From NCBI GenBank assembly GCA_030651065.1, contig JAUSCU010000025.1, positions 1-36,898 of the forward strand: a stretch of DNA of 36,898 bases. Direction: 5' to 3'. The stretch comes from Candidatus Omnitrophota bacterium (GTDB lineage Bacteria; Omnitrophota; Gorgyraeia; 1-14-0-20-64-10). Positions 340 through 36,474 of the stretch are shown here, piece after piece. The number at the start of each line of letters is the position of its first letter. Within the stretch, counting starts at the first letter, position 1. A program made the position numbers and the translations under genes. The notes beneath the pieces are model-generated. The model saw only the letters and a list, made by a program, of their open reading frames with translations, had not been told where the DNA came from and ran no database searches.

Positions 340-371
340 GGCGCTCATCTTAGCATGATAGGATCAGACCG

Positions 372-8075: not shown

Positions 8076-8077
8076 CC

Positions 8078-8779
8078 CTATTCCTCGTCCGGCATCCGGA
8101 ACCGGTAGCCGGCGCCGGTGACGGTGAGGATCTGCTTCCCGGGTGTGCCCAATTTCTGGCGGAGCTGGCTGATGTGCAGATCTACCGTCCGGCTCTGGAT
8201 CTCCGAGGCCTGATCGTACCCCCAGACCTTCTCCAGCAGCATCTCCCGGGAAAGGACGCGGCCGGAGGCCTCCACGAGCACCTTGAGCAGCTCGAATTCT
8301 TTCGGCGTCAGCTCCACCAGTTTTTTCTTGGACTTAACCTTGCGCCGATCCCAATCCACCTCGATCTCCCATCCCTTCCAGAGGGTAGGCGCCTCCGAGG
8401 ATTGGCCCCGCCTCAACACCGCCTTCACGCGGGCCGCCAGCTCCCGAACGCTGAACGGTTTGGCAACGTAGTCGTCCGCCCCCATCTCCAGGCCGACCAC
8501 CCGGTCCGCTTCCTGCGTCTTGGCGGTCAGCATGATGATGGGGATGCGGGCCGTCTTGGGGTCCGATTTCAACTGGCGGCAGACCTCCAGCCCGTCTGTT
8601 TTGGGGAGCATCAGGTCGAGGATGACGAGGTCGGGAAGTTCTTTGCGGGCTTTCGCGAGCCCCTCTTCCCCATCCCGGGCGGTGATCACCTGGTACCCTT
8701 CCCGCTCCAGGTTGTAGAGAACCACCTTGGCGATGTTCTTCTCGTCTTCGACGAGGAGGATCTTATGGCGAGGTTTCAT
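8078..8779 (-). CDS. phoB: OmpR/PhoB family response regulator
   Basis: Start MKPRHKILLVEDE; LDLMLP, IMLTAK, GADDYVAKPF, winged helix SRTVDLHISQLRQKL...GAGYRF. Confidence 0.92.
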   Translation of the reverse strand: MKPRHKILLVEDEKNIAKVVLYNLEREGYQVITARDGEEGLAKARKELPDLVILDLMLPKTDGLEVCRQLKSDPKTARIPIIMLTAKTQEADRVVGLEMGADDYVAKPFSVRELAARVKAVLRRGQSSEAPTLWKGWEIEVDWDRRKVKSKKKLVELTPKEFELLKVLVEASGRVLSREMLLEKVWGYDQASEIQSRTVDLHISQLRQKLGTPGKQILTVTGAGYRFRMPDEE

Positions 8780-8780
8780 T

Positions 8781-11851: not shown

Positions 11852-11868
11852 AGGACTCCTAGCTTAGC
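11847..11868 (-). repeat. 22-bp direct repeat, copy 2 (start region of the 470-aa gene)
   Basis: Identical to 10411-10432; on the minus strand it contains TAAGCT, AGGAG and ATG. Confidence 0.9.
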
Positions 11869-11983
11869 ACAGAGGCATTTCCCTGATGGAAGATCGAGAG
11901 GTTGCCCTGATTGCCCGGTTCCGGCCTCAGGTTTTACACTGTTCTTAGATGAAGAACGGTGCTTAAACGAGGAGGGAACTGCG

Positions 11984-12190
11984 ATGGAACGATCCGTTTC
12001 TGTGGTGTTATTGGTGGTGGGCGCGGCGCTGTTCTTTTATGGGCTTCAAGCCGCCGATTCGATGAGTTCCGCTCTTTCGGAGCTGTTCAGCGGCGCTCCC
12101 AGCAACAAGGCAATTTGGCTGACTGTCGTCGGCGCGATCGTGGCAGGCCTGGGCCTGACAGGATTATTGCGCGGAAGATCGTCGGTTTAA
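11984..12190 (+). CDS. DUF3185-like small membrane protein
   Basis: GAGGAGGG RBS; 68 aa with two TM helices around ADSMSSALSELFSGAPSNKAIW. Confidence 0.8.
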   Translation: MERSVSVVLLVVGAALFFYGLQAADSMSSALSELFSGAPSNKAIWLTVVGAIVAGLGLTGLLRGRSSV

Positions 12191-12208
12191 ACTAAGAAAC
12201 GGAACAGC

Positions 12209-12241
12209 GTCACGGGGGGCCTCTACGGCCCTTCCCGTGAC
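12209..12241 (+). terminator. GC-rich stem-loop after the DUF3185 gene
   Basis: GTCACGGG-GGGCC-tctac-GGCCC-tt-CCCGTGAC inverted repeat; no U-tract. Confidence 0.5.
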
Positions 12242-12257
12242 CTGATACACTGTCTCC

Positions 12258-23108: not shown

Positions 23109-25530
23109 CGAAGAAAAGCTGACGGGCCTCTCCGCGCAGGAAGCCGCCCGCCGGCTCAAAATCGAAGGCCGCAATGAGCTGCCTTCCGGGAAATCCCGCA
23201 CGCCGCTCCGGCTAGCCTGGGAGCTCGTTCGGGAACCAATGATCCTGCTTCTGCTCGCCTGCGGGATCATCTATCTTTTCCTCGGGGACTTCCGCGAAGC
23301 CCTCCTGCTGGCCGCCTCCATCGGCTTGATCCTCGGGATCAGCCTTGTTCAGCAGGGCCGAACCGAGCGGGCGCTCCAAGCCCTCAAAGACCTCTCCGCT
23401 CCGCGCGCGCTGGTGATCCGGAACGGTAAGCGGACGCGGGTCTCCGCCCGGGAGCTGGTGCGGGAAGATCTCGTCGTGCTGATCGAGGGGGACCGGGTCC
23501 CGGCCGACGCGCGGGTGATCTCCTGCGCCCACCTCTCGGTGGATGAGTCCCTGCTGACCGGCGAATCGGCGCCGGTCCGGAAATCGGCCTCACCGGACCC
23601 CCTGCCTCCCCCGCGTCCCGGCGGGGAGGACCTCCCTTTTGTTTTCGCCGGCACCCTGGTTATCCAGGGAGACGGTCTCGGTGAGATTCACGCCACCGGC
23701 CTCCGCACCGAGATGGGAAAAATCGGAAAATCCCTGCAAGCCATCGGACGGGAGGAGACCCGCCTGCAAGGGGAGGTCCGGCGGATCGTCCGGATCTTTG
23801 CCGCGGCGGGACTTTCCGTCTGCGCGGGGGTGGCTCTCCTGCACGGGCTGCACAGCGGCAACTGGCTCCAGGGGTTCCTGGCGGGACTAACGCTGGCGAT
23901 CTCGCTGGTACCGGAGGAGTTCCCCGTCGTGCTGACCGTCTTCCTGGCGCTGGGGGCCTGGAGAATCTCCCGCCGCGGGGTGCTTACCCGCCGGGTGCCG
24001 GCCATCGAGATGCTGGGGGCCGCCACTGTTCTCTGCACCGACAAGACAGGCACCCTCACGCTCAACCGGATGCGGGTTCAGCGCCTGATGGCGGACAGCT
24101 CCGTATTTAACCTTCCCTCCGGGGAGATCGTCTCTGTGCCGGAGGGGTTCCGCGCAATGGTCTCCCGCGCCGCGCTGGCCAGCCATCCGGAAGCGTTCGA
24201 CCCGATGGAGCTGGCGATCCACGCCCTCTCAAAGCAGGCCCTGCCAGACGCGCGGCCGGAGAACTGGAAACTGGTACGCCGCTATCCCCTTTCCAAGGAG
24301 CTGATGGCGATGTCCCAAGTTTGGCAGCAGGAGAGCGGTCCCCTCCGGGTTGCTTCCAAGGGAGCGCCCGAAGCGATCGCGGATCTGTGCCGGATGCCGG
24401 AGGCCGCTCGCCGGCTTCTGCTGGAGGCGGCCCACGCGATGGCCCGGGATGGTTTGAGGGTCATAGGTGTGGCCGAGGGAACGGCCGCTTCCGGTCCCCT
24501 GCCGGAGCGGCAGGACCGGTTTTCCTTTTCCTTCCTCGGACTGATCGGCCTTTCCGACCCGATCCGGCCGGCGGTGCCCGCGGCGATCCGTGAATGCCGC
24601 GGGGCCGGCATCCGGGTCGTGATGATCACTGGTGACTATCCGGAGACCGCCCGCCAGATCGCCCGGCAGATTGGGCTGGAACCGCTGGATCAAGTTTTAA
24701 CGGGGCGGGAGATGGAGGCCCTGGACGACGCGGGACTGCGGGAGAAAGCCAAACAAGTCAGTATCTTCGCGAGGATCGTTCCGGAACAGAAGCTGCGGCT
24801 GGTCAACGCCTTCAAAGCGGACGGCGAGATCGTCGCGATGACCGGCGACGGCGTCAACGACGCGCCGGCCCTCAAGACGGCCCACATCGGCATCGCCATG
24901 GGCGGGCGCGGCACCGACGTCGCGCGGGAGGCAGCGTCGCTGGTGCTGCTCAACGACGATTTTTCATCCATCGTCCGGGCGATCCGGCTCGGCCGGCGCG
25001 TGTTCGACAATCTGCGCCGGGCGATGTCCTATCTCTTCGCGATCCACGTGCCGATCGCCGGCATGGCGCTGATCCCAGTTCTGCTGAGGGGGCCCCTGGT
25101 GCTGCTGCCGGTACACATCGTTTTCCTGGAAATTATCATCGACCCGGCCTGCTCGATCGTTTTCGAAGCGGAACCTGCGGAGAAGGATGTAATGAACCGG
25201 CCGCCGAGGAACCCGAAGGAGCCCCTATTTAACCGGAGCCGGGTAGCCAGAAGCCTTCTGCAGGGGGCAGCCATGCTGGGAATCGCGCTGGGGGTCTATC
25301 TCGCCGCGTGGGCACTCGGAAAACCGGAGTGGGAGATCCGGTCCCTGACCTTCACCTCGATGATCCTCGCCAACTTGGGGCTCATTCTGGTGAACCGCTC
25401 CGGAGGCGGGCTCACCGCGCTGCGTTCGCCCAACCCGGCCCTCTGGTGGGTGATGGGGAGCGCGCTGGCGGTGCTGGGTCTCGTTCTTACCGTGCCGTTC
25501 CTGCGGGAGATCTTCCGCTTCGCCCCTTAA
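23089..25530 (+). CDS. P-type cation-transporting ATPase (type II-like)
   Basis: TGES, PEEFP, DKTGTLT phosphorylation site, KGAPE, MITGD, GDGVNDAPALK. Confidence 0.93.
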   Translation: MPPVRNSEEKLTGLSAQEAARRLKIEGRNELPSGKSRTPLRLAWELVREPMILLLLACGIIYLFLGDFREALLLAASIGLILGISLVQQGRTERALQALKDLSAPRALVIRNGKRTRVSARELVREDLVVLIEGDRVPADARVISCAHLSVDESLLTGESAPVRKSASPDPLPPPRPGGEDLPFVFAGTLVIQGDGLGEIHATGLRTEMGKIGKSLQAIGREETRLQGEVRRIVRIFAAAGLSVCAGVALLHGLHSGNWLQGFLAGLTLAISLVPEEFPVVLTVFLALGAWRISRRGVLTRRVPAIEMLGAATVLCTDKTGTLTLNRMRVQRLMADSSVFNLPSGEIVSVPEGFRAMVSRAALASHPEAFDPMELAIHALSKQALPDARPENWKLVRRYPLSKELMAMSQVWQQESGPLRVASKGAPEAIADLCRMPEAARRLLLEAAHAMARDGLRVIGVAEGTAASGPLPERQDRFSFSFLGLIGLSDPIRPAVPAAIRECRGAGIRVVMITGDYPETARQIARQIGLEPLDQVLTGREMEALDDAGLREKAKQVSIFARIVPEQKLRLVNAFKADGEIVAMTGDGVNDAPALKTAHIGIAMGGRGTDVAREAASLVLLNDDFSSIVRAIRLGRRVFDNLRRAMSYLFAIHVPIAGMALIPVLLRGPLVLLPVHIVFLEIIIDPACSIVFEAEPAEKDVMNRPPRNPKEPLFNRSRVARSLLQGAAMLGIALGVYLAAWALGKPEWEIRSLTFTSMILANLGLILVNRSGGGLTALRSPNPALWWVMGSALAVLGLVLTVPFLREIFRFAP

Positions 25531-25789
25531 GAAGCTTCCGGGTTTTTTCCGCGCGGCTCCACCCTTTGATCTCGGCTTCCCGCTTCAAGGCGGAACTTCG
25601 GGTGGACTGCGCTTCCCGGAAAACCAGCCGGACCGGTTTCCGGGAGCGAGTGTAGGCGCCCCCCTTTCCGGCGTTGTGGGTTTTGATCCGGCGGCCCAAA
25701 TCGGTCGTGATGCCGGTGTAAATCGATCCGTCGCGGCACCGGACCGCGTAAACGAACCAACGGGAAGGGGCTGCTTTTTTAAGCTTCAA
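25487..25789 (-). CDS. GIY-YIG nuclease family protein (YhbQ/UPF0213-like); start uncertain
   Basis: WFVYAVRCRDGSIYTGITTDLGRRIKTHNAGKGGAYTRSRKP...ALKREAEIK. Confidence 0.88.
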   Translation of the reverse strand: MKLKKAAPSRWFVYAVRCRDGSIYTGITTDLGRRIKTHNAGKGGAYTRSRKPVRLVFREAQSTRSSALKREAEIKGWSRAEKTRKLLKGRSGRSPAGTAR

Positions 25790-25853
25790 GGGAGTGAAAC
25801 GGGCCAAACTGTCGAGAGTATTGTACCAACCGCGCATGCTAAAATAAAAACGA

Positions 25854-26129
25854 ATGAATGGAAAACCTAAAAAAATAGGCCGGTCGCCGAACATAAGCTC
25901 CCATGAAACCCCCGGAGGATCGGTTATCCTCTCTCATGAAACGGGTAATCTCTTTTCACTCAATGTCACTGGAACGGAGATTTGGGATCACTGCAGAGAA
26001 GAGCGCTCTATCGATGAGATCGTATCGTTTATGAGCCAAAAATATGGCCTCCAAACAGAGGCTTTCCGGACCGAAATCTTGTCTTACGTGGAACAGCTGC
26101 AGCAGGCGGGTTTCTTCAGAATGCTCTGA
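25854..26129 (+). CDS. PqqD family protein / RiPP recognition element (RRE) 1
   Basis: 91 aa with VILSHETGNLFSLNVTGTEIWDHCREERSIDEIVSFMSQKY...YVEQLQQAGFF PqqD pattern. Confidence 0.9.
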   Translation: MNGKPKKIGRSPNISSHETPGGSVILSHETGNLFSLNVTGTEIWDHCREERSIDEIVSFMSQKYGLQTEAFRTEILSYVEQLQQAGFFRML

Positions 26130-26133
26130 GTCG

Positions 26134-27189
26134 ATGGACGCGAACCCCGTTATCCCAAAGTTGATTCGAGCCGCCCTTGAGAAGGAACCTTGCCTGAAGA
26201 TTTCCTCCACCGGCACAAGCATGCTGCCCACGATCCGCCCCGGCCAGACAATCTGGATTGCTCGAGTTCGGCCCGAAGAAATCCGGCCCGGAGATATCAT
26301 TTTGATCCAGAGCTCTTCGTCCTTGGTCCTCCACCGGCTCCACCGTATCGAAAAAAGAGAGGGCGCTTCGCCTGTTTTTATCACGAGCGGGGACGCCTCG
26401 GGAAAGCTGGATACCCCCTGCCGAGCCGAATCCATTCTGGCAAAAGTCATCAAGATTCAGGAGGATTCGGGAAGCGGTTTCCTGGATAAATTTTCCAATG
26501 GGTTTATCCGTTCTTACGAAAACCTCTTCGCTTTTCCATACCGGACCTATCAACGGTGTGTAGGAAAACAATGGTACGGCCTCCTTCACCGCACCGTCCG
26601 AAAAGTGTCGGGCGGACGTCCGGTGGCAGCCCCGCTGATGGCCCTTTTCCCAATGGGTTCCCGAGCCATGGCGTTGGTTCCCCTAAGGAGGGCCCTTCGA
26701 AGGAAAGCGGCTTCGCTCCATCGTTTTCTGCCGGGAGGAACCGTTGAAAAACGGGGAACGCCGGACTCCGTCGAGCCGATCCTCGAACTGTGGAACCGCT
26801 CCGTTCCCCATCCCTCCGGCGAAAGCGCAGACAACCTGAAAAAGGAGTTCCTTGCGGCTGATCTTCCCGGGCAAAACTCATTCTGTTTTACTTTTACACG
26901 GCACGGAAAGACGCTGGGATTCCTGTCGGGATACGGGAGTTCTATTCAAGCCATTGCCGTGGATCCTGATTTTCGAAGAAAAGGCATCGGCTCCGCATTG
27001 CTGGAGGCGCTGTTGAAAGAGGCCCGGCGGCGAGGGGTTCGACAACTGGTCGTCTCGAGAAATCAGGGTATTTTCCCTAAGGTGGAGTTTTCAAAGTATG
27101 AGTCTGTGGTGCTTTTCTTTTCACGATGGGGATTCTCCGTTGAAACGACCTGGGAGGGACAGCTTGTCTGCCTGAGGTTTGCGTTATGA
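26134..27189 (+). CDS. S24/S26 peptidase - GNAT acetyltransferase fusion
   Basis: N-terminal GTSMLPTIRPG...PGDII...LHRL...ITSGD (S26, Ser/His). C-terminal IAVDPDFRRKGIGSALL...FFSRWGF (GNAT motif A). Confidence 0.85.
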   Translation: MDANPVIPKLIRAALEKEPCLKISSTGTSMLPTIRPGQTIWIARVRPEEIRPGDIILIQSSSSLVLHRLHRIEKREGASPVFITSGDASGKLDTPCRAESILAKVIKIQEDSGSGFLDKFSNGFIRSYENLFAFPYRTYQRCVGKQWYGLLHRTVRKVSGGRPVAAPLMALFPMGSRAMALVPLRRALRRKAASLHRFLPGGTVEKRGTPDSVEPILELWNRSVPHPSGESADNLKKEFLAADLPGQNSFCFTFTRHGKTLGFLSGYGSSIQAIAVDPDFRRKGIGSALLEALLKEARRRGVRQLVVSRNQGIFPKVEFSKYESVVLFFSRWGFSVETTWEGQLVCLRFAL

Positions 27190-27301
27190 AACTGCCGCTC
27201 TCCCTCCTCGTTCTTACGCTGAATGAGGCCAAAACGCTTCCCTTCTGTCTCGCGCCGCTGAAAGACCATGTTTCGGAGATCCTGGTCTGCGACACCGGAT
27301 C
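27149..27301 (+). repeat. 153-bp near-identical block, copy 1
   Basis: Matches 29444-29596 with 4 mismatches by manual alignment; spans the GNAT 3' end and the GT 5' end. Confidence 0.9.
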
Positions 27302-28406
27302 GGCGGACGGGACCCCTCGCATTGCAAAGCGGCATGGCGCAACCGTTTTTTTTCGACCGCCCGTGAAAGACGGCCGGCTGGACAGGGCGAGGAATTTCCT
27401 GATTGAGAAGGCCGCGCAGCCGTGGATTTTGTTTATTGACGCGGATGAGCAAATCGCTCGAAAGAGCATCCCCTTGCTCAGAGCTCTGATCCTGCGTCCA
27501 AAAGCGGACACCTATTATTTTCCGAGAAGAAATTATTCCGATACCCTTCCCGTTTTGTATGAATGGCATCCCTGCCGCCGGGAATATCCGCGGGAAGAGC
27601 GATTTTCCCGTTGTCACGGTTATTATGAAACGCCCCGGATCTGCCTTTTCAGAAATCAACCCCGGCTTCGCTATGAAGTTCCGGTTCATGATTCGCTCCT
27701 GCCTGCCATACAACGCCACGGCATTTGCATTCAACCGGCCGATCTGCCGATTCACCATTTTGAGTTTCACAAAGGAATGGGGCATCACATCGAGAAACAC
27801 CGGTTCTACGCGAAAATCCTCAAAAGGCTCATCCGCCGCGTCCCCGCATACACCCCCGCCTATTTTTCCGTTGTTCGCGATCTGATAGCCAGCGGCTCCA
27901 ATCCCAAGGAAACACTCCGCTTCGCGCAGCGCCTGACGGCGAAAGCTTCGCACTCGGACGACGCCTGGACATTACGGGGGGTCGTCGAAATGGAAGCTGG
28001 GCGATACCTGGAAGCGGAAGCTCATTTTAAAAAAGCCATCCGGCTTGAAAAATCCGCCCGGAACCTGTGCTTACTCGGCTGGCTTTATCTGAAAAAGGGG
28101 GATTATTCGTTATCCGAGAAAATCCTGAAGGAATCGCTTGGAAAATCGCCTCTCCAACCGCTCACCTTGAATCTGTTGGGAATCGCGCGGGAAAGGACGG
28201 GGGAAATAAAAAAAGCGCTCCGCTCTTTTTCAGAAGCCGGCAGGATCCATCCCGGCTACGCCGAGAGCTTTTATAATCAGGCCGTGATCCGGGGGCGTTT
28301 AGGGGACCTGCGCGGGTCGAGAAAGAATTACGAGAGGTCGCGTCAGCTCTTTTCGGCGATGAGGATGTGGCGCATCGAGTCGGGCGTCGGCGGATCGGCA
28401 TCGTAG
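27186..28406 (+). CDS. GT2 glycosyltransferase with C-terminal TPR repeats (copy 1)
   Basis: TLNEA..LP.CL, DTGSADGT, ARN, WILFIDADE, VHD; TPRs AWTLRG...AEAHFKKAI, LNLLG, FYNQA; ATGA coupling to the upstream gene. Confidence 0.9.
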   Translation: MKLPLSLLVLTLNEAKTLPFCLAPLKDHVSEILVCDTGSADGTPRIAKRHGATVFFRPPVKDGRLDRARNFLIEKAAQPWILFIDADEQIARKSIPLLRALILRPKADTYYFPRRNYSDTLPVLYEWHPCRREYPREERFSRCHGYYETPRICLFRNQPRLRYEVPVHDSLLPAIQRHGICIQPADLPIHHFEFHKGMGHHIEKHRFYAKILKRLIRRVPAYTPAYFSVVRDLIASGSNPKETLRFAQRLTAKASHSDDAWTLRGVVEMEAGRYLEAEAHFKKAIRLEKSARNLCLLGWLYLKKGDYSLSEKILKESLGKSPLQPLTLNLLGIARERTGEIKKALRSFSEAGRIHPGYAESFYNQAVIRGRLGDLRGSRKNYERSRQLFSAMRMWRIESGVGGSAS

Positions 28407-29158
28407 TTTCCGCAGACCTGCTTGAGCGCGAGGCCAGCTTTTCGAAACATCGCTTCAAGTTCTTCAACGGCGTAGATTCGAATAGAAAACGAGAACTCCT
28501 TGCGTTTCCCGTTCTTTAAAATTCTAATTCTCTTCTGGACGTTGCGCCCCGTGGCGGGGTCAAATTGTCTTTCCACGAGGACCGCCGAACCATCGGAAAA
28601 TTGCTGCCAGTCCTTTACCTTCTCGCGGTAGGTACGGGCGATGTAGTCCCGGTTCATGATGTCGAGCACGAACCTGCCACCCCGCTTCAACGCCTTCGCT
28701 GTTTGATCAAGGGTTTTTTGATCTTCTTCATCGCTTTCCAGGCAACCGAAAGCACTAAAGAGGTTCAGCGCGACATCGAACGTGTCCTCGAAAGGAATCT
28801 CGCGCATGTCTCCCCTGACCCAACGCACAGAAACCTCGGCACGGTTTGCCGCTTTTTTCGCTTCGTCGAGGAAAAACGAGTTAAGGTCCTGTCCGGTGAC
28901 ATGGTAGCTGCGGCGCGCCAACTCGATCGAATGGCGCCCGTGGCCGCAGGGGCAATCCAAGATTTCATCGCCTCGCTTGAGCGCGAGCGTCTTTTCAAGA
29001 AAATCAATCTCCGCGAGAGTTCTCTCCGGCGTGAGATCGTATACGTACTCTTTCAGATAATGGGGGCCGAAAAATCCGGCCTTTTCACTGTACCAGGGGG
29101 CTTGAAACGGATGAACACGCGCAATCGCAGACCTAACAGCTTGCCGCAGGGGCAACAA
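28343..29158 (-). CDS. Class I SAM-dependent methyltransferase (copy 1, intact)
   Basis: ILDCPCGHGRHS motif I, TGQD, GDMREIPF, FDVALNLFSAFG, LKRGGRFVLD; TTG start uncertain. Confidence 0.9.
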   Translation of the reverse strand: MLPLRQAVRSAIARVHPFQAPWYSEKAGFFGPHYLKEYVYDLTPERTLAEIDFLEKTLALKRGDEILDCPCGHGRHSIELARRSYHVTGQDLNSFFLDEAKKAANRAEVSVRWVRGDMREIPFEDTFDVALNLFSAFGCLESDEEDQKTLDQTAKALKRGGRFVLDIMNRDYIARTYREKVKDWQQFSDGSAVLVERQFDPATGRNVQKRIRILKNGKRKEFSFSIRIYAVEELEAMFRKAGLALKQVCGNYDADPPTPDSMRHILIAEKS

Positions 29159-29179
29159 GAACCCTTTTGGGCCGCTCTC

Positions 29180-29293
29180 TTAGGTGGCTGAAGAAACCAT
29201 GAAACGGATATTCCCCTCGCGAGTCGCCTTGGGCGGCTCGTAGACCGCTTTCTTATCCGAACCGGATTGTTTTGAGGCTTTCTTGTTCTTCAT
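29180..29293 (-). CDS. Putative RiPP precursor peptide 1 (37 aa)
   Basis: Not in the ORF track. AAAAGGAGGG RBS; MKNKKASKQSGSDKKAVYEPPKATREGNIRFMVSSAT*; lasso-type YxxP..G leader motif; paralogous to 31517-31651. Confidence 0.85.
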   Translation of the reverse strand: MKNKKASKQSGSDKKAVYEPPKATREGNIRFMVSSAT

Positions 29294-29443
29294 GGAGTCC
29301 CTCCTTTTTATCCTTCAACGTTTTACAGCGCTACTCTATAAAAGATATCATAGATATGACACTCTGGGAAAATTAACTGACCTTTTTCTTGGAGCTGGTT
29401 TTTATTCTTCACGCTTTTGCACAGCTTTCATAATATAGGGCAT

Positions 29444-29596
29444 CCTGGGAGGGACAGCTCGTCTGTCTGAGGTTTGCGTTGTGAAACTGCCGCTCTCCCT
29501 CCTCGTTCTTACGCTGAATGAGGCCAAAACGCTTCCCTCCTGTCTCGCGCCGCTGAAAGACCATGTTTCGGAGATCCTGGTCTGCGACACCGGATC
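29444..29596 (+). repeat. 153-bp near-identical block, copy 2 (duplication junction)
   Basis: Begins with an orphan remnant of the GNAT gene 3' end (WEGQLVCLRFAL*) directly after AT-rich intergenic DNA. Confidence 0.9.
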
Positions 29597-30692
29597 CACG
29601 GATGGAACCCCTCGAATCGCGAAACAGCTCGGCGCGACCGTTTACTTTAAACCACCCCTAAAGAACGGGCAGTTCCATCAGATCAGAAACTTTTTGCTAA
29701 AAAAAGCCGCGCACCCCTGGATTCTGTTTATTGACGCGGATGAGCGAATTGCCCAAAAAGACATTCCTTCTCTCAAAGAACTAATCTTGCGTCCAAAAGC
29801 GGATGTCTATTCCTTTACAAGACGAAATTACTCCAATCTGCTTCCCTTCCTGTATGAATGGCATCCGTGCCGCGGAGAATACCGAAAGGAAGAGCTGTTT
29901 TCCCGCTGCCACGGTTATTATGAAACATCCCGGATATGCCTTTTCAGGAACATCCCTCAACTCCGTTACGAACTTCCAATCCACGAAACGCTAGCGCTTT
30001 CCATACAACACACCGGCATTCGCATTCAATCGGCCGCTTTCCGAATTCACCATTTTGAATTTCGTAAAGGGGTGGCGCATCACCTTAAAAAACACCGTTT
30101 CTACGCGAAAATCCTTAAGAAGTCGGCTCATCGTTTGCCCGAATACACGCCGGCCTATCTTTCCCTGGTCAGCGATTTGATGGCCTGCGGCGGCTCGGCC
30201 AAAGAAACAATCCATTTCGCCCGGCGGTTGACTACACAAGTTCCATGGTCGGACACCGCTTGGAACCTAAGGGGCGTCGCAGAAATGGAAGCCGGCCGGC
30301 ATAGGGAATCGGAATTGCATTTCAAAAAAGCGATCCAACTAAAAAAATCGGCCCGAAACCTGTGCTTGCTTGGTTGGCTCTACCTGAAGAAAAGAGATTA
30401 TTCATTATCTAAAAAAATGCTGAAAGAATCTCTCGGAAAATCGCCTTCCCAGCCCCTTACTTTGAACCTGCTGGGGATCGCTCACGAAAGGACCGGGGTG
30501 ATGCGCGAAGCTCTTCGTTTTTTCTCGGAAGCCGGACGGATCCATCCCGGCTACGCCGAGAGTTTTTACAATCAAGCGGTGGTCCAGGGACGTTTAGGAG
30601 ACCTGCGCCGCTCAAAACAAAATTTCAACCGAGCGCGCCGGCTTATGTCAGCTTTTATCGGCGACGACGATGCAGCGCAGAGAGTCCGCTGA
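29481..30692 (+). CDS. GT2 glycosyltransferase with C-terminal TPR repeats (copy 2)
   Basis: Colinear paralogue of 27186-28406; GTG start; DTGSTDGT, WILFIDADE, IHE, TPRs. Confidence 0.9.
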   Translation: MKLPLSLLVLTLNEAKTLPSCLAPLKDHVSEILVCDTGSTDGTPRIAKQLGATVYFKPPLKNGQFHQIRNFLLKKAAHPWILFIDADERIAQKDIPSLKELILRPKADVYSFTRRNYSNLLPFLYEWHPCRGEYRKEELFSRCHGYYETSRICLFRNIPQLRYELPIHETLALSIQHTGIRIQSAAFRIHHFEFRKGVAHHLKKHRFYAKILKKSAHRLPEYTPAYLSLVSDLMACGGSAKETIHFARRLTTQVPWSDTAWNLRGVAEMEAGRHRESELHFKKAIQLKKSARNLCLLGWLYLKKRDYSLSKKMLKESLGKSPSQPLTLNLLGIAHERTGVMREALRFFSEAGRIHPGYAESFYNQAVVQGRLGDLRRSKQNFNRARRLMSAFIGDDDAAQRVR

Positions 30693-31472
30693 GAGGGGAT
30701 CGGCATTGTGGCTTCCATACATCTTCTTAATCGTCAGCCCGGCTTTGCGCAACATTCCCGCAAGCTCCTCAACGGTATAGACGCGAATGAATAACGAGAA
30801 TTCTTCGCGATGGCCGTCTTTGCGAATCCTGATTCGCCTCTGAAGATTGCGTCCGGTCGCGCGGTCAAACTGCCTTTCAACCATAACCGCTGAGCCGTCG
30901 GAAAACTGTTACCAGTCCTTCACTTTCTCACCGTAGGCGCGGACAACATATTCCCGGTTCATGGTGTCGAGCATGAATTTGCCGCTGCGTTTCAGCGCCT
31001 TTCCTACTCGATCGAGAGCATTCTGATCCTCCTCGTCGTTCTCCAAGCAGCCAAAAGTGCTGAAGAGGTTCAGCGCAATATCGAACTTGTCCTCGAAAGG
31101 AATTTCGCGCATATCGCGCTTGATCCAACGCACCGAAACCTGAGCGCGCTGGGCGGCATTCCGCGCTTCGCGAAGAAAAAACGAGCTAATGTCCTGTCCG
31201 GTGACCTGATAGCCGCGCCGCGCTAATTCAATCGAGTGGCGCCCGTGACCGCAGGGGCAATCCAAAATCTCAGCGCCCGGTTTGAGCGCGAGCGCCTTTT
31301 CGAGAAAATCAATCTCTGCCAGAGTTTTTTTGGGCGCGATATCGTACGCGAATTCTTTCAGATAGTCCGGGCTGTAAAAACCGGCTTTTTCGCTGTACCA
31401 CGGAACTTGAAGGGATTCCTGCCTTGCAGCATAAATGAGGGCGCGCATCCGGGTAACGACAGGCCTAACCAC
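30648..31472 (-). pseudogene. Class I SAM methyltransferase copy 2, interrupted by an in-frame TAA at 30909-30911
   Basis: KVKDW*QFSDGSAVMVERQFD versus KVKDWQQFSDGSAVLVERQFD in copy 1; the frame is preserved on both sides of the stop. Confidence 0.85.
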
Positions 31473-31516
31473 CCGTTTGGCAATGCCGATAATTCCTTTA
31501 ATGGGAGAGACTGCTA

Positions 31517-31651
31517 TTAATAAATAGCTGCAATCATCTGGCGGATGTTTCCCTCCAGGGTCATGCGGGGAGGTTCATAGGAAGCTTGCTTGCCTGAATC
31601 CGCCGGGCGATCTGAAACCGATTTACCCTGAAGTTTTCTCTTTTTGTTCAT
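31517..31651 (-). CDS. Putative RiPP precursor peptide 2 (44 aa)
   Basis: Not in the ORF track. GGAGGG RBS; MNKKRKLQGKSVSDRPADSGKQASYEPPRMTLEGNIRQMIAAIY followed by a TAA TAG double stop; directly downstream of PqqD 2. Confidence 0.85.
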   Translation of the reverse strand: MNKKRKLQGKSVSDRPADSGKQASYEPPRMTLEGNIRQMIAAIY

Positions 31652-31705
31652 ATTCGCATCCCTCCGTCTTCTAGTGAATTATGCCATAAAAATTCCCCAG
31701 GCTAT

Positions 31706-31975
31706 TCAAAGGAATCGAACGAATCTCTCTCTCCGAAGTTCTTCAAAATATTGCTCGACATCCATGGCGGCTTGCTCGCGAGGAATTCCATATTTTTCAG
31801 AAAAACGACCGGCGATCTCGCTGAGCAATCTTTTTCCGTCCATTTCCTTCCATAGATACCCACCGGCTTTGTTCAAAAAACGATAGTTGCCATTTTCAAC
31901 ATCCAGAATGATCCCCTCTTTCCATTTGGACTTAAAAAGAACGCCTTTGGCTGGTGCCGGTCTCTTGTTTTTCAC
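31706..31975 (-). CDS. PqqD family protein / RRE 2
   Basis: IILDVENGNYRFLNKAGGYLWKEMDGKRLLSEIAGRFSEKYGI...DVEQYFEEL; GTGA coupling to the upstream gene. Confidence 0.9.
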   Translation of the reverse strand: MKNKRPAPAKGVLFKSKWKEGIILDVENGNYRFLNKAGGYLWKEMDGKRLLSEIAGRFSEKYGIPREQAAMDVEQYFEELRRERFVRFL

Positions 31976-33633
31976 GCTTTTTCTACCGCCTTTACCATAT
32001 CCGGTATTCCGGAGGGACCATAGGTCAGCTCAAATCCCCGCGCCTCATGCGCCAGACGATTTAGAATGGCGCCGTGCGTTCGCCACAATAGGTCCCGCTG
32101 TCCATAACCGCAGTTCATCTTGTAATAATCATCGGACTTCAACCTATCAAGCGTTTGAGCGACAGACAACGGCTTCAGCGTCAACCCCCCGTTTTCCCGA
32201 AACTTGGGGAAAATGAGTTTTCTCACGCGGCAAACACTCCCTAATGGACCATCCCAAACGGCCTGAGGATGAATGCAGTGCTTGCCAACCGATCTTTCAT
32301 AATGGAATTTCTTTCGAGCCCCCGGAAAATTGCGCAAAGATACCGCCGGCAACGCTATCCGGTTTGGAAAACTTTTTCCGACCACTCCAGTTCCATCCAT
32401 TTGGATAATAGGATGCTCATCGGAATAATAACGGTATCCGGACCGCAAAAAGACCACGGATAAGGTGCTTTTCCCTGCCCCGCTTTGCCCCATGAACAGT
32501 ATCCCGTTATTTTGTTTTGAGACCAAAGCCCCATGCACCAACGTGGCTCCGCTTCTTAACAGCAAAAAGGATACCGGGAAGAGGAGGATGTTGTGATACA
32601 ACGCGTTTTCAGGGAGCGCTTGCCCCGTTTTCAAAAGAATCAGCGCCTCGGCATGGCGGGACGAAAAAGAGCATCCGATGCCGTCTTCCCACCATCGGCG
32701 CAGAGCGCACGCTTCGAGATCGCTGCCGGGATAGAATACCCCGGAACTTTTGTGACGCATATTGAGAAGCAGATCGGATGGGCCAAATTTCGCCGGAACG
32801 CTCCAAGGCCGGACGGGACAACAGAGATTTTTTCTGAGCAGAGAAAAACATTCCGGATCCGCCGAAAGAAGCCGGATCTTCCAGCCATGAAGCTGAAAGC
32901 TGACGCCGCGCGAAGCCTGCGGCAGATCGATCGCGTCCCGGGTGAGCACATTCGCGCTGCCGTCCCACCGGACAAGCCGATCCGTTAAACTGCCGGAACG
33001 CAACCGCTGAACATAGACGCAACGATCGATAAAATAAAACCGGGTCTTGCCCCAAAGACGCATAAGAAGATTCGTATCATGAGCGACCTTCAATCCAGGA
33101 TGATAACCGCCTGCGGCCCGGAGAACCGATTTCCTGAACATCACGCCTCCGTGAAAAGTGTGCCAGGGAAAACGCTGAAGGAGGCCGCTCTTCATCGGAA
33201 AACGGTTCGATTTATTTCCAAGAGGACTCGCCCACCCGAGTATTTCTTCTCGATCCCTTTTAAAAACAATGGCGTTCCCTAACACAACTCCAACTTGGGG
33301 GTATTGGTCAAAAATGCGCGCCCCCTCCGCGAGCCTTCCCGCCAGCATGATATCGTCGGAATCGTGAGGCGCTATGTACCTCCCGCGGGCATGCTTGCGG
33401 ATGTGGTTATGCCCGTATGAAGCGCCGCGATTCCGCTTGACCCGAAAAATCCGGACCCGGGCATCCTTCGCGTAAGACTGTGCTATCGCAAAAGTTCGAT
33501 CGGTTGAGCCGTCGTCATAAATGATGAGTTCGAAAGAGATTCCCTTCTGCTTCAGAACGCTTTCGATGGACGCGGCGAGAAATCGTTCGGCATTGTAGGC
33601 GGGCATTGCCACGGTGACCTTGGGATTTTTCAT
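31972..33633 (-). CDS. GT2 glycosyltransferase - HprK-related kinase fusion (alternative start 33654)
   Basis: N-terminal VAMPAYNAE, YDDGSTD, HDSDD (GT2). C-terminal LVHGA...LFMGQSGAGKSTL...YYSDE (HPr kinase-like P-loop). Confidence 0.85.
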   Translation of the reverse strand: MKNPKVTVAMPAYNAERFLAASIESVLKQKGISFELIIYDDGSTDRTFAIAQSYAKDARVRIFRVKRNRGASYGHNHIRKHARGRYIAPHDSDDIMLAGRLAEGARIFDQYPQVGVVLGNAIVFKRDREEILGWASPLGNKSNRFPMKSGLLQRFPWHTFHGGVMFRKSVLRAAGGYHPGLKVAHDTNLLMRLWGKTRFYFIDRCVYVQRLRSGSLTDRLVRWDGSANVLTRDAIDLPQASRGVSFQLHGWKIRLLSADPECFSLLRKNLCCPVRPWSVPAKFGPSDLLLNMRHKSSGVFYPGSDLEACALRRWWEDGIGCSFSSRHAEALILLKTGQALPENALYHNILLFPVSFLLLRSGATLVHGALVSKQNNGILFMGQSGAGKSTLSVVFLRSGYRYYSDEHPIIQMDGTGVVGKSFPNRIALPAVSLRNFPGARKKFHYERSVGKHCIHPQAVWDGPLGSVCRVRKLIFPKFRENGGLTLKPLSVAQTLDRLKSDDYYKMNCGYGQRDLLWRTHGAILNRLAHEARGFELTYGPSGIPDMVKAVEKA

Positions 33634-33634
33634 C

Positions 33635-34879
33635 CTAGCCCTTGGCCTTTCCATGGATCACGCGCGACAAGATGCCGATCATTCGCATGGGAAGAACACC
33701 GATCCTCTTCATGAAGTACAAGGGCCTGCTCGAAAGATATTCCGAAGAGGCCCGGGCCCTTTGCCGTTCAAATGAAATCCACCATTCCAGGAAAACACCC
33801 CAACCAAAGGCAAGCGCAGGACAATTCAGCAGCGACATCCGGATCTCCTCCGCCCCGGAAATTCCTTGCTCGATCTCCTGCGGGCGCCGCAAGACGTTCG
33901 GAACCTGGAGATCGGAACCTAAGGCCAGGGAAAGGACCGTTTTTCTGTAGCGGACCGGGAGACGGATCCCCCGGAAACGCTCTACCAGACCCAGAGACAC
34001 TGCCATCGCTGTCGTCAGTCCGGTACGGTGTGCGATTCCGAAAACATCCTCCCAGTCGATTTCTGTTCCATGTCGCTCGATAAGACAAGCCATGTCATTC
34101 ACAAGGTAGATTTGCGGCTTTCCGTCTTTCAGCAAATTAATACTTAAATAGATTATATGCCCCGCAGGGGACAACCCGGGGCAAGAGTGTGCGGTTTGGG
34201 TCCGGTAAGAATTCCACGGAACGGGACGGCATTGCCCTCGGAGCCACTGCAGAAGACGGCCGGCGGAATCCCCCTTTAGATGAAAATTGGAAGGCGTTCG
34301 GAGGAGCTCGAGAGCGATGGGGTTTTCCTCTACGCCGGTTTTTATGAACGGGAGGTCGTGATCTATTTTCCAGTGCTCTTGCCAAGTAAGCGGAAACCGG
34401 GGTTGGAACCTAAAATCCAAGGATTCGACAATGCGTACAGCGTCCGAAAGCTGCTTCTCTTCTCCGAATATCAGCACATCCAGATCGGCGCTTCCTCTGG
34501 AAATGGGAATTTCCCCATAAATCCAGCGGTGCGAGAGAGGACCCTTGACCGCGGCGAACGGGAGATCGGAATCGGACAAGGCGGAGCACAGCTGCTCAAG
34601 AGCAGCTCCTTGAATAAAATCCTTTCCCATCGCCCAAGAGTACTCCGCAGTCATCTTGCGGTTGATTTCAGCCGGCAGTTCTTTCGAAATCGGCTCCAGA
34701 TGAAACCAGAGGTAGCCGTTCAAATGGTGCGCGTTCATGAGAGAGAAAATGCGCGGCCAATCCGTTGGGCGAAGAACCCGAAGCTTGTTTAAGTACTCTT
34801 CTTTGGGATGACGGTGATAAGAGGAGCAGAGGAAGACGAACTCTTCGCAAGCCGTAAGGGGATCGGAGCTATCGCTCAT
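33635..34879 (-). CDS. Nucleotidyltransferase family protein (NTP_transf_5-like)
   Basis: DWPRIFSLMNAHHL helical N-terminus, then AVKGP....IYG...RGSADLDVLI (KG...R..DxD). Start at MSDSSDPL; the longer ORF-track version runs into tRNA-derived DNA. Confidence 0.82.
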   Translation of the reverse strand: MSDSSDPLTACEEFVFLCSSYHRHPKEEYLNKLRVLRPTDWPRIFSLMNAHHLNGYLWFHLEPISKELPAEINRKMTAEYSWAMGKDFIQGAALEQLCSALSDSDLPFAAVKGPLSHRWIYGEIPISRGSADLDVLIFGEEKQLSDAVRIVESLDFRFQPRFPLTWQEHWKIDHDLPFIKTGVEENPIALELLRTPSNFHLKGDSAGRLLQWLRGQCRPVPWNSYRTQTAHSCPGLSPAGHIIYLSINLLKDGKPQIYLVNDMACLIERHGTEIDWEDVFGIAHRTGLTTAMAVSLGLVERFRGIRLPVRYRKTVLSLALGSDLQVPNVLRRPQEIEQGISGAEEIRMSLLNCPALAFGWGVFLEWWISFERQRARASSEYLSSRPLYFMKRIGVLPMRMIGILSRVIHGKAKG

Positions 34880-34924
34880 AACCCTATTGTCCCTTCCTTG
34901 CGTCTGGTTCGTCTGGTACCAAAA

Positions 34925-35076
34925 TGGTTGCCCCGCTAGGATTCGGCGCCGAGCCCGGCCGCTCCGCGGCCACGGTGCTCGGTCGCCACTCGGCCTCGGT
35001 GGAGTCCCGTGCTCCTGCACGTCGCACGGCCTGCATAAAAGAAGCTCGGCCTCACTTCGAATCCCAGAGGGAAACC
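34925..35076. repeat. Palindromic tRNA-3'-end-derived element
   Basis: Left arm TGGTTGCCCCGCTAGGATTCG (34925-34945) contains an exact 18-bp copy of the tRNA-Gln 3' end plus CCA. Right arm CGAATCCCAGAGGGAAACC (35058-35076) is an imperfect inverse. Inner pair GCCGAGC/GCTCGGC. Confidence 0.75.
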
Positions 35077-35078
35077 TG

Positions 35079-35116
35079 ATGAAGCCGTTCGAACCAAAAG
35101 GTTCAGCCGGCTTCAT
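35079..35116 (-). terminator. Hairpin immediately 3' of tRNA-Gln
   Basis: ATGAAGCCG..GAACC-AAAA-GGTTC..CGGCTTCAT. Confidence 0.65.
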
Positions 35117-35120
35117 AAAA

Positions 35121-35191
35121 TTGCCCCGCTAGGATTCGAACCTAGACAAGCAGATCCAGAATCTGCTGTGCTACCGTTACACCACAGGGCA
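35121..35191 (-). tRNA. tRNA-Gln (anticodon CTG), CCA not encoded
   Basis: TGCCCTGTGGTGTAACGGTAGCACAGCAGATTCTGGATCTGCTTGTCTAGGTTCGAATCCTAGCGGGGCAA folds as a cloverleaf with anticodon arm GCAGA-TTCTGGA-TCTGC and T arm CTAGG-TTCGAAT-CCTAG. Confidence 0.97.
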
Positions 35192-35207
35192 AGAGAAACA
35201 GTCTTTG

Positions 35208-35217
35208 ATTATATAAT
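35208..35217. promoter_or_regulatory. Overlapping bidirectional -10 elements (tRNA-Gln / DCC1 gene)
   Basis: The palindrome ATTATATAAT gives TATAAT on both strands in the 45-bp divergent gap. Confidence 0.65.
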
Positions 35218-35236
35218 ACCGGGGGAGGGGACGGGG

Positions 35237-35632
35237 ATGGAACGGGTGATCTTCTTCGATGGGGTTTGCGATTTCTGCTCCTTCTGGGTCAAGTTCGTGA
35301 TCCGGCGGGACCCCCAGGGTAAATTCCGTTTCGCGCCGCTGCAGTCTCCGATGGGCCGGGAGGTCTGCCGGACGCTGAATCTCCCAGAGGATCCGCCTCA
35401 ATCGGTCATCCTGAAAGAAAACAACCGGACCTTCACCCAATCCGCGGCGTCGCTTAGGATCCTTAAGGAACTCACCGGCCTTTGGCCTCTCCTGTACGCC
35501 CTCATCGCCGTTCCCGCCCCGCTGCGGAATTTGGTCTACCGGTTCATCGCGACTAACCGGTACCGGTGGTTTGGAAAAGAGGAGTCCTGCTTTGTGCCGG
35601 CACCGGAGATCCGGAGCCGGTTCCTCAGTTAG
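35237..35632 (+). CDS. DCC1-like thiol-disulfide oxidoreductase (DUF393)
   Basis: MERVIFFDGVCDFC (DxxCxxC), FRFAPLQS, YRFIATNRYRWFGK..SC; GGAGG upstream. Confidence 0.92.
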   Translation: MERVIFFDGVCDFCSFWVKFVIRRDPQGKFRFAPLQSPMGREVCRTLNLPEDPPQSVILKENNRTFTQSAASLRILKELTGLWPLLYALIAVPAPLRNLVYRFIATNRYRWFGKEESCFVPAPEIRSRFLS

Positions 35633-36474
35633 ACCGTCTTAGAGTGGACCGCGGCGCGCAAGAGTTCTTCGTCGAACCCTTCCGGCGTTTTCTTGTAGCG
35701 AGCGTATACATACAGGGCCGTCTGAAATACCGTCGTCAAGGTATCGTACAAAGCCTGCGCCAGGATCAGGTAGGCGACGCCACAGGTCTTGAACATCCAT
35801 CCGGGTGTGAAAAGGAGCCCAACACCCGGCAGCATCAACACCCCGAAGATCGCCCCGAAGCTGATCTGCCCTACGAGCTGCTTGCCCCATGTCTCGCGAA
35901 GCAACTCCGCGGACCTGGCCAGCGCTTTCAGCGGAGGTTTTCCCTCAATGATGATCACGGGAACCGCGAAAAAACTTAGCAGGTTGAAGGCGATGTTCGA
36001 GACGTCCGCGACAATCTTTTCAATCCTCGTTCGGCCCAGCAATCCAAGGAGGAACCTCAACCCTGTCACCACCGCAGCCCAGCCAAGCAACGCGGGCAAA
36101 CGCTTGAACGCCATCCGGAAGCCTGTCTCCAACGTGGGGTCTTCCCCGATAAACCGGGTAATCACGCAACCCACGATCGCAGCTGTGGAAAAATAAATCG
36201 CCGCGTTGGCAGCCAGCATCCAAAGGAACAGGGCCACGAAAGGTTTGATGCCGAAATAAAACAGGTTGGACTGAAACTTGTCTCCGGCGCCGGCCAGAAT
36301 GCCGGCCCGTCCGCCCATGATCGAGTAGATCGCGATCATAAAAAGACCGAACGAAGAGAGGATCAGGACCCACTCGAGTAAGGAGAACAAGATCATCTCC
36401 TTGTCTTTTCGATAGACGTTCCACGAAGCGGCCATCAATTCCCAGGCGTGCGGATCTCCCGTCATGGGTCTCAA
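35629..36474 (-). CDS. Membrane protein, DUF6159-like (start TTG 36474 or ATG 36465)
   Basis: About 6 hydrophobic segments; SWNVYRKDKEM, FAVPVIIIEG...ALARSAELLRETWG, FQTALYVYA. Confidence 0.7.
   Translation of the reverse strand: MRPMTGDPHAWELMAASWNVYRKDKEMILFSLLEWVLILSSFGLFMIAIYSIMGGRAGILAGAGDKFQSNLFYFGIKPFVALFLWMLAANAAIYFSTAAIVGCVITRFIGEDPTLETGFRMAFKRLPALLGWAAVVTGLRFLLGLLGRTRIEKIVADVSNIAFNLLSFFAVPVIIIEGKPPLKALARSAELLRETWGKQLVGQISFGAIFGVLMLPGVGLLFTPGWMFKTCGVAYLILAQALYDTLTTVFQTALYVYARYKKTPEGFDEELLRAAVHSKTV

Follow-up and report, generated by a model that had tools for sequence, protein, structure and literature searches.

In the system of the linear polyphosphorylated peptides (LPPs), a pathway for peptides that are made on ribosomes and modified after translation (RiPPs), the leader of the precursor is cut by the SipW-like signal peptidase LppS, which is inactivated by the substitutions S29A, H68A or D93A; a discrete RiPP recognition element (RRE) presents the leader to the peptidase, and cleavage is RRE-dependent. 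The leader carries the motif YxxPxVLxHQxIxFETxxS and is cut after T(-1). An HprK kinase polyphosphorylates Ser3 of the core, and the system also has a nucleoside triphosphate (NTP) transferase whose role is unknown, together with an MsbA-like pump, and lacks a cyclase; LPPs are described as confined to Bacillota (Popov et al., Nat Commun 2026, PMC13381572). HprK-like kinases also act on the linear precursors of paeninodin and pseudomycoidin, where a nucleotidyltransferase adds a hexose to the phosphate (PMC8498205), and nucleotidyltransferases of the PF14907 family occur in paeninodin-type lasso clusters as well as in LPP clusters. In lasso leaders Tyr occupies position -17, Pro -14, Leu -12 and Thr -2; in phosphorylated lasso peptides (BsfK, Bsf-type) Ile or Val is found at leader position -2 (PMC10368454). 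Here we describe a locus in a 36,898-nucleotide stretch of DNA from a Candidatus Omnitrophota bacterium (contig JAUSCU010000025.1; this whole stretch is hereafter called the window) in which two small open reading frames (ORFs) are likely, in our judgement, to encode the precursors of an RRE-dependent, lasso-related and non-cyclising RiPP pathway that would be a distant variant of the LPP type.

The two ORFs had been picked out in an original prediction made from the letters of the window, and both were found exactly as quoted there, in coordinates and in translation:

29180..29293, minus strand: precursor peptide 1, 37 amino acids (aa), with a basic N-terminus, a YEPP..T.EGNIR block and the tail VSSAT; 64.6 bits with the hidden Markov model (HMM) of the family.
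31517..31651, minus strand: precursor peptide 2, 44 aa, with a basic N-terminus, a YEPP..T.EGNIR block and the tail IAAIY; 66.8 bits with the family HMM.

Both start with ATG, and GGAGGG is found upstream by 6 nucleotides (nt) in copy 1 and 9 nt in copy 2, in agreement with the strong ribosome-binding sites that had been proposed; in both, the stop codon lies 5 codons past the conserved Met, which is the equal distance from block to stop that had been noticed. The shared block, predicted as YEPPxxTxEGNIRxM, is identical at 14 of 24 positions between the two peptides (E 5e-10, BLASTP, single comparison), and its Y, P(+3), T, G, N and R turned out to be invariant in the family described below. 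Positions 31491-31646 are matched without difference by a contig of an independent groundwater run (X2). A scan for promoters and terminators was uninformative, with 1 promoter-like site versus 2.5 expected. The observation of the two ORFs is confirmed, and it is more than chance.

A profile made from the two peptides was compared with 1.84 billion representative proteins and matched 7 of them at E <= 0.001; two of these are the window peptides themselves, three are additional short peptides with a like build, and the remaining two, long repeat proteins unrelated to the family, were discarded. In addition, a degenerate DNA pattern for the block was run on the collections genome_contigs and metagenome_contigs, in which 7 and 9 stretches matched, respectively. 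The 16 matches comprise nine small family-type ORFs, two lasso-type precursors (L026, from an Actinoplanes genome, and L029), two other ORFs, and three matches within a Myxococcota-type protein. These last three (L020, L023 and L025) were rejected; the pattern was found in a larger protein through PPMTIEGNLSV, which belongs to a separate homologous family unrelated to the small peptides. A word-index search with the 44-aa peptide returned the query itself only, an alignment of the two peptides against genome_contigs matched 41 pattern stretches, none of which was confirmed, and the precursor profile gave no match at a useful E-value in the PDB. The resulting family is a rare one and consists of 10 distinct peptides of 37-44 aa with one common build, carried by the genome of the window, by Ca. 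Omnitrophus fodinae, by a Parcubacteria metagenome-assembled genome and by metagenomes. The prediction of hidden precursor peptides near PqqD-type RREs is supported.

All ten peptides begin with a Lys/Arg-rich N-terminus of 17-24 residues, with 6-11 Lys+Arg and 2-5 Ser+Thr each, and continue with the block YE(P/A)PxxTx(E/Q)GNxR, of which all ten share the residues Y, E, P(+3), T(+6), G(+9), N(+10) and R(+12). For the nine genes seen as DNA, the start codon is ATG in every case and a Shine-Dalgarno-like motif lies upstream in eight. Of the 15 codons that make up the block in these nine genes, all 15 vary at the third position but only 4 at the second, and codon change is mostly synonymous; although the search pattern itself fixed some first and second codon positions in the block, the residues that it left free, together with start and stop, are nonetheless conserved across the family. 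Homologues with long cores had been named beforehand as the finding that would make the window peptides truncated relics. None of the 10 peptides has a long C-terminal core, only very short ones being found in the family search, and the window peptides are therefore not regarded as truncated relics. Conservation of this kind indicates that the two small ORFs are real genes. For one family member (L030, 10583-10711, minus strand) the database protein runs 4 residues beyond the TGA stop of translation table 11, with Trp at that codon, and therefore the source of that record treated TGA as a sense codon; the large ORFs neighbouring this peptide are open in table 11, and its true end is uncertain.

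The tails after position 14 (counted from the Tyr of the block) read VSSAT and IAAIY in the window and ASTTA, SSMTA, SAMS, SSMS, SSMTL, ITASTT, SSMC and VSSSH in the other members. In all ten the tail extends 4-6 residues past the Arg+2 position of the block and includes one or more Ser, Thr, Tyr or Cys residues. The original prediction had drawn attention to a C-terminal hydroxyl residue, which is correct for both window peptides (T and Y) and does not extend to the family, because the C-terminal residues are T, Y, A, A, S, S, L, T, C and H and no more than 5 of these 10 are hydroxyl residues; what all members obey instead is the presence of at least one Ser, Thr, Tyr or Cys among the last 2-5 residues. 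A link between a hydroxyl C-terminus and the presence of a kinase was dropped, since the O. fodinae peptide ends in Ala yet this genome has HprK-like genes (on another contig), and since the loci are too short to score absence.

Several features are in agreement with the lasso-type leader that had been claimed: Y, P(+3) and G(+9) are present in 10 of 10 peptides, the best solved match of the RRE is TbiB1, and the family HMM picks up the true lasso precursor L026, which in the same register has Thr at position 15 and its core from position 17. Gly is also part of the lasso leader consensus. At the position equivalent to lasso -12 the ten peptides have A, M, I, L or V, and at the -2 equivalent V, I, A, S (five times), I and V, never Thr. 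If the lasso register is applied (Tyr = -17), the cores would be 2-4 residues long, position 16, which is Ser, Ala or Thr in all ten peptides, would be -1, and position 14, aliphatic in every family peptide, would be -3; signal peptidases prefer small residues at -1 and aliphatic residues at -3, and the lasso register fits these preferences. In the LPP register (Tyr = -16) the cores would be 3-5 residues long, and all ten would begin with Ser, Ala or Thr as the new N-terminus. The tripeptide cores SAT and AIY proposed for the window are obtained in the lasso register; the register itself is a putative one and two cut sites are possible. Cleavage would thus take place after position 15 (LPP-type cut) or position 16 (lasso-type cut). 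The 2-5-residue tails hold no Asp or Glu, in line with the claim that they are too short for a lasso ring and without an acidic residue. Position 18, which equals Ser3 of LppA, is Ser, Thr or Cys in 8 of 10 peptides; in the window this position is Ala in precursor 1 and Ile in precursor 2, and their Thr and Tyr lie one position past it.

The components that would recognise and cut the leader are encoded by the following genes:

25854..26129, plus strand: discrete PqqD-family RRE, copy 1 (PF05402, 56.2 bits, cut-off 23.4), adjoining the peptidase-GNAT gene on its upstream side.
26134..27189, plus strand: S24/S26 (archaeal/SipW type) signal-peptidase-I-like protease fused to a GNAT domain; the listed ORF starts at 26044, and the likely start is the ATG at 26134.
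31706..31975, minus strand: discrete PqqD-family RRE, copy 2 (PF05402, 57.9 bits; lasso_PqqD_Bac, 38.6 bits), between the GT2-HprK gene and precursor 2.

RRE copy 1 ends 4 nt ahead of the peptidase start and shares 25-36% identity with PqqD genes found in 6 related loci; its best NCBIfam match is lasso_PqqD_Bac (43.6 bits, below the cut-off of 80). Among solved structures, the RRE profile matched TbiB1 (65.6 bits), PbaB1 (9x90, 52.4 bits), TfuB1 (50.8 bits) and LppB (9x8z_B, 24.7 bits). An ORF starting at 26044 would overlap the PqqD gene, and BLASTP alignments of the peptidase-GNAT protein to its homologues begin at residue 31 of that ORF. The protein scored 47.3 bits with TIGR02228 (sigpep_I_arch, cut-off 51.85), 21.1 bits with PF00717 (cut-off 23.3) and 41.4 bits with the GNAT family PF00583. 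H67 and D93 are invariant in 6 aligned homologues and Ser29, within an SMLP motif, is kept in the 5 rows spanning this position. In a predicted model of low confidence, residues 18-111 match SipA (Z 9.3, root-mean-square deviation 2.5, 88 aligned) as well as SEC11C (Z 8.5), whereas the GNAT fold is matched by residues 199-343 (Z 9.5; RimI, Z 8.5); by both sequence and model, the nearest solved relatives of the GNAT part are RimI and N-terminal acetyltransferases. The leader protease would be a signal-peptidase-like Ser/His/Asp enzyme and not a lasso B2 protein. A word-index search with the peptidase-GNAT found 4 proteins, that of the window included. In four related loci (L021, L027, L028 and L034) this protein is ~530 aa long, versus 351 aa in the window, with an extra C-terminal domain of ~180 residues that, given its conserved motifs, may be a second GNAT-like domain. 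A complex prediction with the RRE, peptidase residues 1-135 and the precursor was not used as evidence; a control with a replaced peptidase scored equally high, and the result is unspecific.

The remaining genes of the cluster encode putative tailoring enzymes:

27186..28406, plus strand: GT2-TPR glycosyltransferase, copy 1 (PF00535, 61.9 bits, and C-terminal TPR families).
28343..29158, minus strand: class I S-adenosylmethionine-dependent methyltransferase, copy 1 (PF13649, 65.6 bits), located downstream of precursor 1 by 21 nt and running in the same direction.
29481..30692, plus strand: GT2-TPR glycosyltransferase, copy 2, 73% identical to copy 1 and divergent from precursor 1.
30648..31472, minus strand: methyltransferase, copy 2, 69% identical to copy 1, with one in-frame TAA at 30909-30911.
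31972..33654, minus strand: fusion of a GT2 domain (N-terminal half; PF00535, 97.1 bits) with an HPr-kinase-like P-loop domain (C-terminal half).
33635..35116, minus strand: PF14907 "uncharacterised nucleotidyltransferase" (87.3 bits, cut-off 31.2, residues 117-381); the start codon is uncertain.

The glycosyltransferase part of the GT2-TPR protein matches the solved structures of GmaR (38.9 bits) and SunS (33.5 bits), its TPR part matches the TPRs of OGT, and copy 1 is 42-49% identical to peptide-adjacent GT2-TPR genes in 5 related loci. The HprK-like domain scored 25.8 bits with PF07475 (cut-off 33.3) and 45.5 bits with TIGR04352 (HprK_rel_A, cut-off 200); residues 372-430 of the fusion match HprK in the PDB at E 0.003, the translation contains the P-loop GQSGAGKST, and homologues are carried by L030, by a Parcubacteria contig and by a second contig of O. 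fodinae. The paeninodin kinase analogy drawn in the original prediction is apt, since the locus carries both an HprK-like domain and a PF14907 nucleotidyltransferase. The best NCBIfam match of methyltransferase copy 1 is daptide_MTase (62.8 bits, far below the cut-off of 175). In copy 2 the TAA replaces a Gln of copy 1 and the remaining frame is open; run X1, perhaps the source sample, has a contig with identical letters, and the contigs of run X2 leave the site uncovered. This second copy is probably a pseudogene. No methyltransferase homologue was found in the related family loci; relatives elsewhere are only ~30% identical and none has a family peptide nearby, therefore the methyltransferase is considered an accessory of this window.

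The nine family loci span 1.6-13.8 kb each, and because of this length the absence of a gene cannot be scored in them. Of the nine, 7 have a peptidase(-GNAT) homologue, 6 a PqqD gene, 5 a GT2-TPR gene (40-49% identity) and 2 GT2/HprK-like genes; four of them (L021, L028, L032 and L033) have the peptidase gene on one side of the peptide gene and the GT2-TPR gene on the other. An ABC-2 permease was identified beside the set in L027 by Pfam, and similar ORFs are in the same place in L028 and L033, as judged from ORF maps only. L030 has a GT2 gene and an HprK-like gene; it also encodes a sulfotransferase with a C-terminal PqqD fusion (11525-12673, plus strand) and a PMT-like (GT-C) glycosyltransferase (7640-9220, minus strand), which are further candidate hydroxyl-tailoring enzymes. 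The Parcubacteria-labelled contig L050 (13411 bases) holds 4 HprK-like genes, 3 of them fused to GT2, along with 2 PqqD genes, several GT4/GT2 genes and one family peptide, and the second O. fodinae contig carries an HprK-PqqD-GT2/HprK module. Among 400 other genomes sampled from the phylum of the window, a GT2-TPR homologue at E <= 1e-30 was found in 5; one of these holds a family peptide, identical to that of the named O. fodinae record, and in the other four (L038-L041, GT2-TPR 30-33% identical) there is no family peptide in the stretch fetched. The Actinoplanes locus L026 contains an apparently unannotated lasso precursor (1711-1953, minus strand) with a cyclase gene directly downstream (1-1695, minus strand); the cyclase belongs to the albusnodin/ikarugamycin family (241 bits) and a GT2 gene lies on the other side.

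Part of the cluster has arisen by a tandem duplication of ~2.3 kb that includes the GT2-TPR, methyltransferase and peptide genes; the direct repeats are 71-84% identical with a spacing of 2295-2305. All the cluster genes besides methyltransferase copy 2 are open. The cluster lies in a low-GC island, with 51-56% GC at 26001-36000 versus 61-66% at 1-26000 of the window; in the related loci the GC content is 40-49%. The composition suggests that the cluster was acquired horizontally. DCC1-like and DUF6159 genes mark the right edge of the island, and its left edge is marked by the following gene:

25487-25894, minus strand: GIY-YIG domain gene.

Farther to the left, a 738-aa ORF at 12258-14474 (plus strand) has no Pfam match at E <= 1e-4 and adjoins a 764-aa fusion of a phosphodiesterase and an endonuclease-exonuclease-phosphatase.

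Compared with the systems described above, the locus looks like a distant, sugar-adding variant of the LPP family, which is the closest described one. The two have in common a linear product made without a cyclase and a discrete RRE for a YxxP leader (judged here by gene content), a protease of the archaeal/SipW type (S29/H67/D93 here versus S29/H68/D93 in LppS), a putative HprK-like kinase domain together with a PF14907-type NTP transferase, a location among glycosyltransferase genes with a patchy distribution, and an acceptor residue 2-3 positions past the cleavage site, which is a putative one in our case. In contrast, the hosts are Omnitrophota-type and Parcubacteria-labelled genomes and metagenomes instead of Bacillota, and the core would have 2-5 residues versus 45 in LppA, LPP precursors being 35-200 aa long. 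The full LPP leader consensus is absent; the agreement is limited to Y, P, a hydrophobic residue at +5, an aliphatic residue at +11 and S/T/C at +18 (8 of 10), and after YxxPx-hydrophobic the family leader reads T.EGN.R. The RRE scores nearer to lasso B1 proteins than to LppB, the peptidase is fused to one or perhaps two GNAT domains, a GT2-TPR enzyme is a conserved neighbour, and the kinase is fused to GT2. Related loci carry a transporter of the ABC-2 type instead of an MsbA-like exporter, and the window ORFs checked include no ABC transporter.

The resemblance to phosphorylated or phosphoglycosylated lasso peptides includes Tyr, Pro, a hydrophobic residue and Gly in the leader at lasso spacing, a B1-type RRE, Val or Ile at the -2 equivalent of both window peptides as in the Bsf-type, a putative HprK-like kinase domain with a nucleotidyltransferase, and a sulfotransferase as accessory enzyme (here in L030). 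The locus differs from lasso clusters in that the window has no Asn-synthetase-like cyclase and the genome (88.7% complete) has no match to the transglutaminase-like B2 protease (PF13471) at E <= 0.1; the one strong PF00733 match of the genome (367 bits, 623-aa ORF) is on another contig, covers the full model and is housekeeping-like. Furthermore, the tail has no Asp or Glu, which lasso peptides have at position 7-9, and is far too short for a ring. We consider the locus a variant and not a plain member because the exporter type, the full leader motif, the likely RRE clade, the cyclase and the B2 features fail to agree, and the earlier interpretation of the two peptides as short-core, lasso-like precursors is partly supported.

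Other pathways offer more limited parallels. The best solved relatives of the GT2 domain are GmaR, a flagellin O-GlcNAc transferase, and SunS, one of the glycocin enzymes SunS/ThuS; a helical repeat domain follows the glycosyltransferase domain here too, and the Cys at the candidate acceptor position of one family member (L032) would fit an S- or O-glycosyltransferase; however, the similarity covers only ~85 residues at 33-39 bits, TIGR04195 scores 36.4 bits in the window and 50.7 bits in L030 versus a cut-off of 350, and glycocin precursors are disulfide helical hairpins with double-glycine leaders and no RRE. With albusnodin the locus shares a GNAT that is integral to a lasso-type-leader pathway, and the L026 lasso precursor lies beside a cyclase of that family; albusnodin is, according to a review, a cyclised lasso peptide with a separate acetyltransferase for tailoring, whereas in this locus a single protein combines GNAT and leader protease. 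Daptides differ as well, given that the methyltransferase match (NF041820) stays far from its cut-off and that C-terminal Thr, invariant in daptides, is present in 2 of 10 peptides. In the literature, the LPP supplementary member lists not covered, we found no description of the peptide family or of the peptidase-GNAT / GT2-TPR / PqqD set, and a single paper uses the term "linear polyphosphorylated peptide"; in the sections available, RRE-Finder and a 2025 RRE paper mention only RRE-glycosyltransferase fusions.

From the genes, their conservation, synteny and domain content we infer a pathway in which binding, each chemical step, the order of the steps, the cleavage site and export would be as in a short-core relative of the LPPs. 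The PqqD proteins would bind the Tyr-x-x-Pro-x-hydrophobic part of the leader, by homology to TbiB1, PbaB1 and LppB; the GT2-TPR enzyme would put a sugar on a Ser, Thr, Tyr or Cys of the tail; in this window the HprK-like domain would phosphorylate, and the GT2 domain fused to it and the PF14907 enzyme would extend the phosphate, by analogy with paeninodin and pseudomycoidin; and the methyltransferase may add methyl groups to the tail. The signal-peptidase-like protease would then cut after position 15 or 16 from Tyr, and the fused GNAT would acetylate the freshly exposed N-terminus, yielding a decorated peptide of only 2-5 residues.

Several observations weigh against this pathway. The peptidase domain scores below the curated cut-offs of TIGR02228 and PF00717, the peptidase-GNAT model is poor overall (mean predicted local distance difference test score 57.5), and the HprK-like domain also falls below its curated cut-offs. 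LppK rejected Thr or Tyr in place of Ser3 (PMC13381572), and the window tails end in Thr and Tyr, with Tyr as the sole acceptor of copy 2 (AAIY). The RRE profile scores lasso B1 proteins above LppB, which suggests a placement outside the LPP clade, and the family leader has only YxxPx-hydrophobic in common with the LPP motif; for these reasons the kinship with LPPs may be convergent or very deep. Methyltransferase copy 2 is interrupted by a stop, no exporter or ABC transporter was found among the ORFs checked at 12258-36474, and modification could fall not on the tail but on the N-termini, which are variable and Lys/Ser-rich.

This last point can be developed into a different reading, namely that the block is an internal docking site, the Lys/Arg/Ser-rich N-terminus is modified or the whole 37-44-aa peptide is the product, and the tail is a spacer or cleavage tag. 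The N-termini do vary as cores do, their 6-11 Lys+Arg and 2-5 Ser+Thr are possible acceptors for the GNAT, kinase and glycosyltransferases, and the cleavage site in the family is a putative one; nevertheless we find this reading unlikely, given that the homologous lasso and LPP cores lie C-terminal of YxxP (PMC10368454 and PMC13381572), that lasso leaders are likewise variable upstream of YxxP, and that the tail is bound by rules, extending 4-6 residues past the block with a small residue at position 16 and always with Ser, Thr, Tyr or Cys. The peptide could also serve as a scaffold on which its C-terminal residue or residues are built into a small molecule with sugar, phosphate and methyl groups, which is released while the leader is reused. 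An extremely short variable part, the presence of a protease, the many enzymes of small-molecule type (three GT2 domains, a methyltransferase and a nucleotidyltransferase) and the resemblance to other pathways that build small molecules at a peptide C-terminus agree with such a scheme. It is nonetheless improbable: no enzyme that adds amino acids to a C-terminus is found among the cluster ORFs by Pfam and NCBIfam matches, and the tails vary in length and sequence beyond what a fixed small-molecule precursor would allow; moreover, it overlaps the proposal of a decorated 2-5-residue peptide and differs only in what is called the product.

We give very little credence to the idea that the locus is the decaying remnant of a lasso or LPP cluster brought in by horizontal transfer, with small ORFs that were kept only by recent duplication and make nothing. 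The low-GC island, the broken methyltransferase copy 2, the lack of a cyclase, a B2 protease and an exporter in the locus (ORFs checked) and the patchy distribution in the phylum (GT2-TPR homologue in 5 of 400 genomes) would all be expected from it; but the 10 peptides keep start, block and stop across lineages with mostly synonymous codon change, the other cluster genes are open, and both peptide copies retain their ribosome-binding sites. Equally remote from our expectation is that these are small basic proteins with another role, such as nucleic-acid binding or regulation, which merely lie beside glycosylation genes: their N-termini are very basic and modification is here a proposal, but the invariant YxxPx-hydrophobic...G is the motif bound by lasso-type RREs, 6 of the 9 loci have a PqqD gene, and the peptidase and GT2-TPR genes flank the peptide gene in a constant arrangement.

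The RRE-dependent, non-cyclising pathway accordingly remains the reading that we favour. It is possible, though rather doubtful at present, that it represents a separate RiPP class of groundwater bacteria with small genomes (Omnitrophota and Parcubacteria-labelled bins), arisen apart from the Bacillota LPPs, in which a lasso-type leader and RRE and a signal-peptidase-GNAT cut would give N-acetylated, O- or S-glycosylated peptides of 2-5 residues that in some loci would also be phospho-glycosylated, sulfated or methylated.

The LPP family was described only in 2026 and is still without a known final product (PMC13381572). A second and distant group would show that the strategy of combining a signal-peptidase-like protease with an RRE of lasso type is more widespread; it would share with LPPs the protease type, the RRE logic and the kinase/nucleotidyltransferase toolkit, and would be distinct in its tiny core, its fused acetyltransferase and its conserved peptide-type glycosyltransferase. 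With this family, lineages for which few natural products are known gain ten small genes that had no annotation. With so tiny a core the chemistry would be easily tracked by mass spectrometry, and the peptides would provide a minimal substrate for the roles of the PF14907 enzyme and the GT2 partners, a question left by the LPPs and pseudomycoidin.

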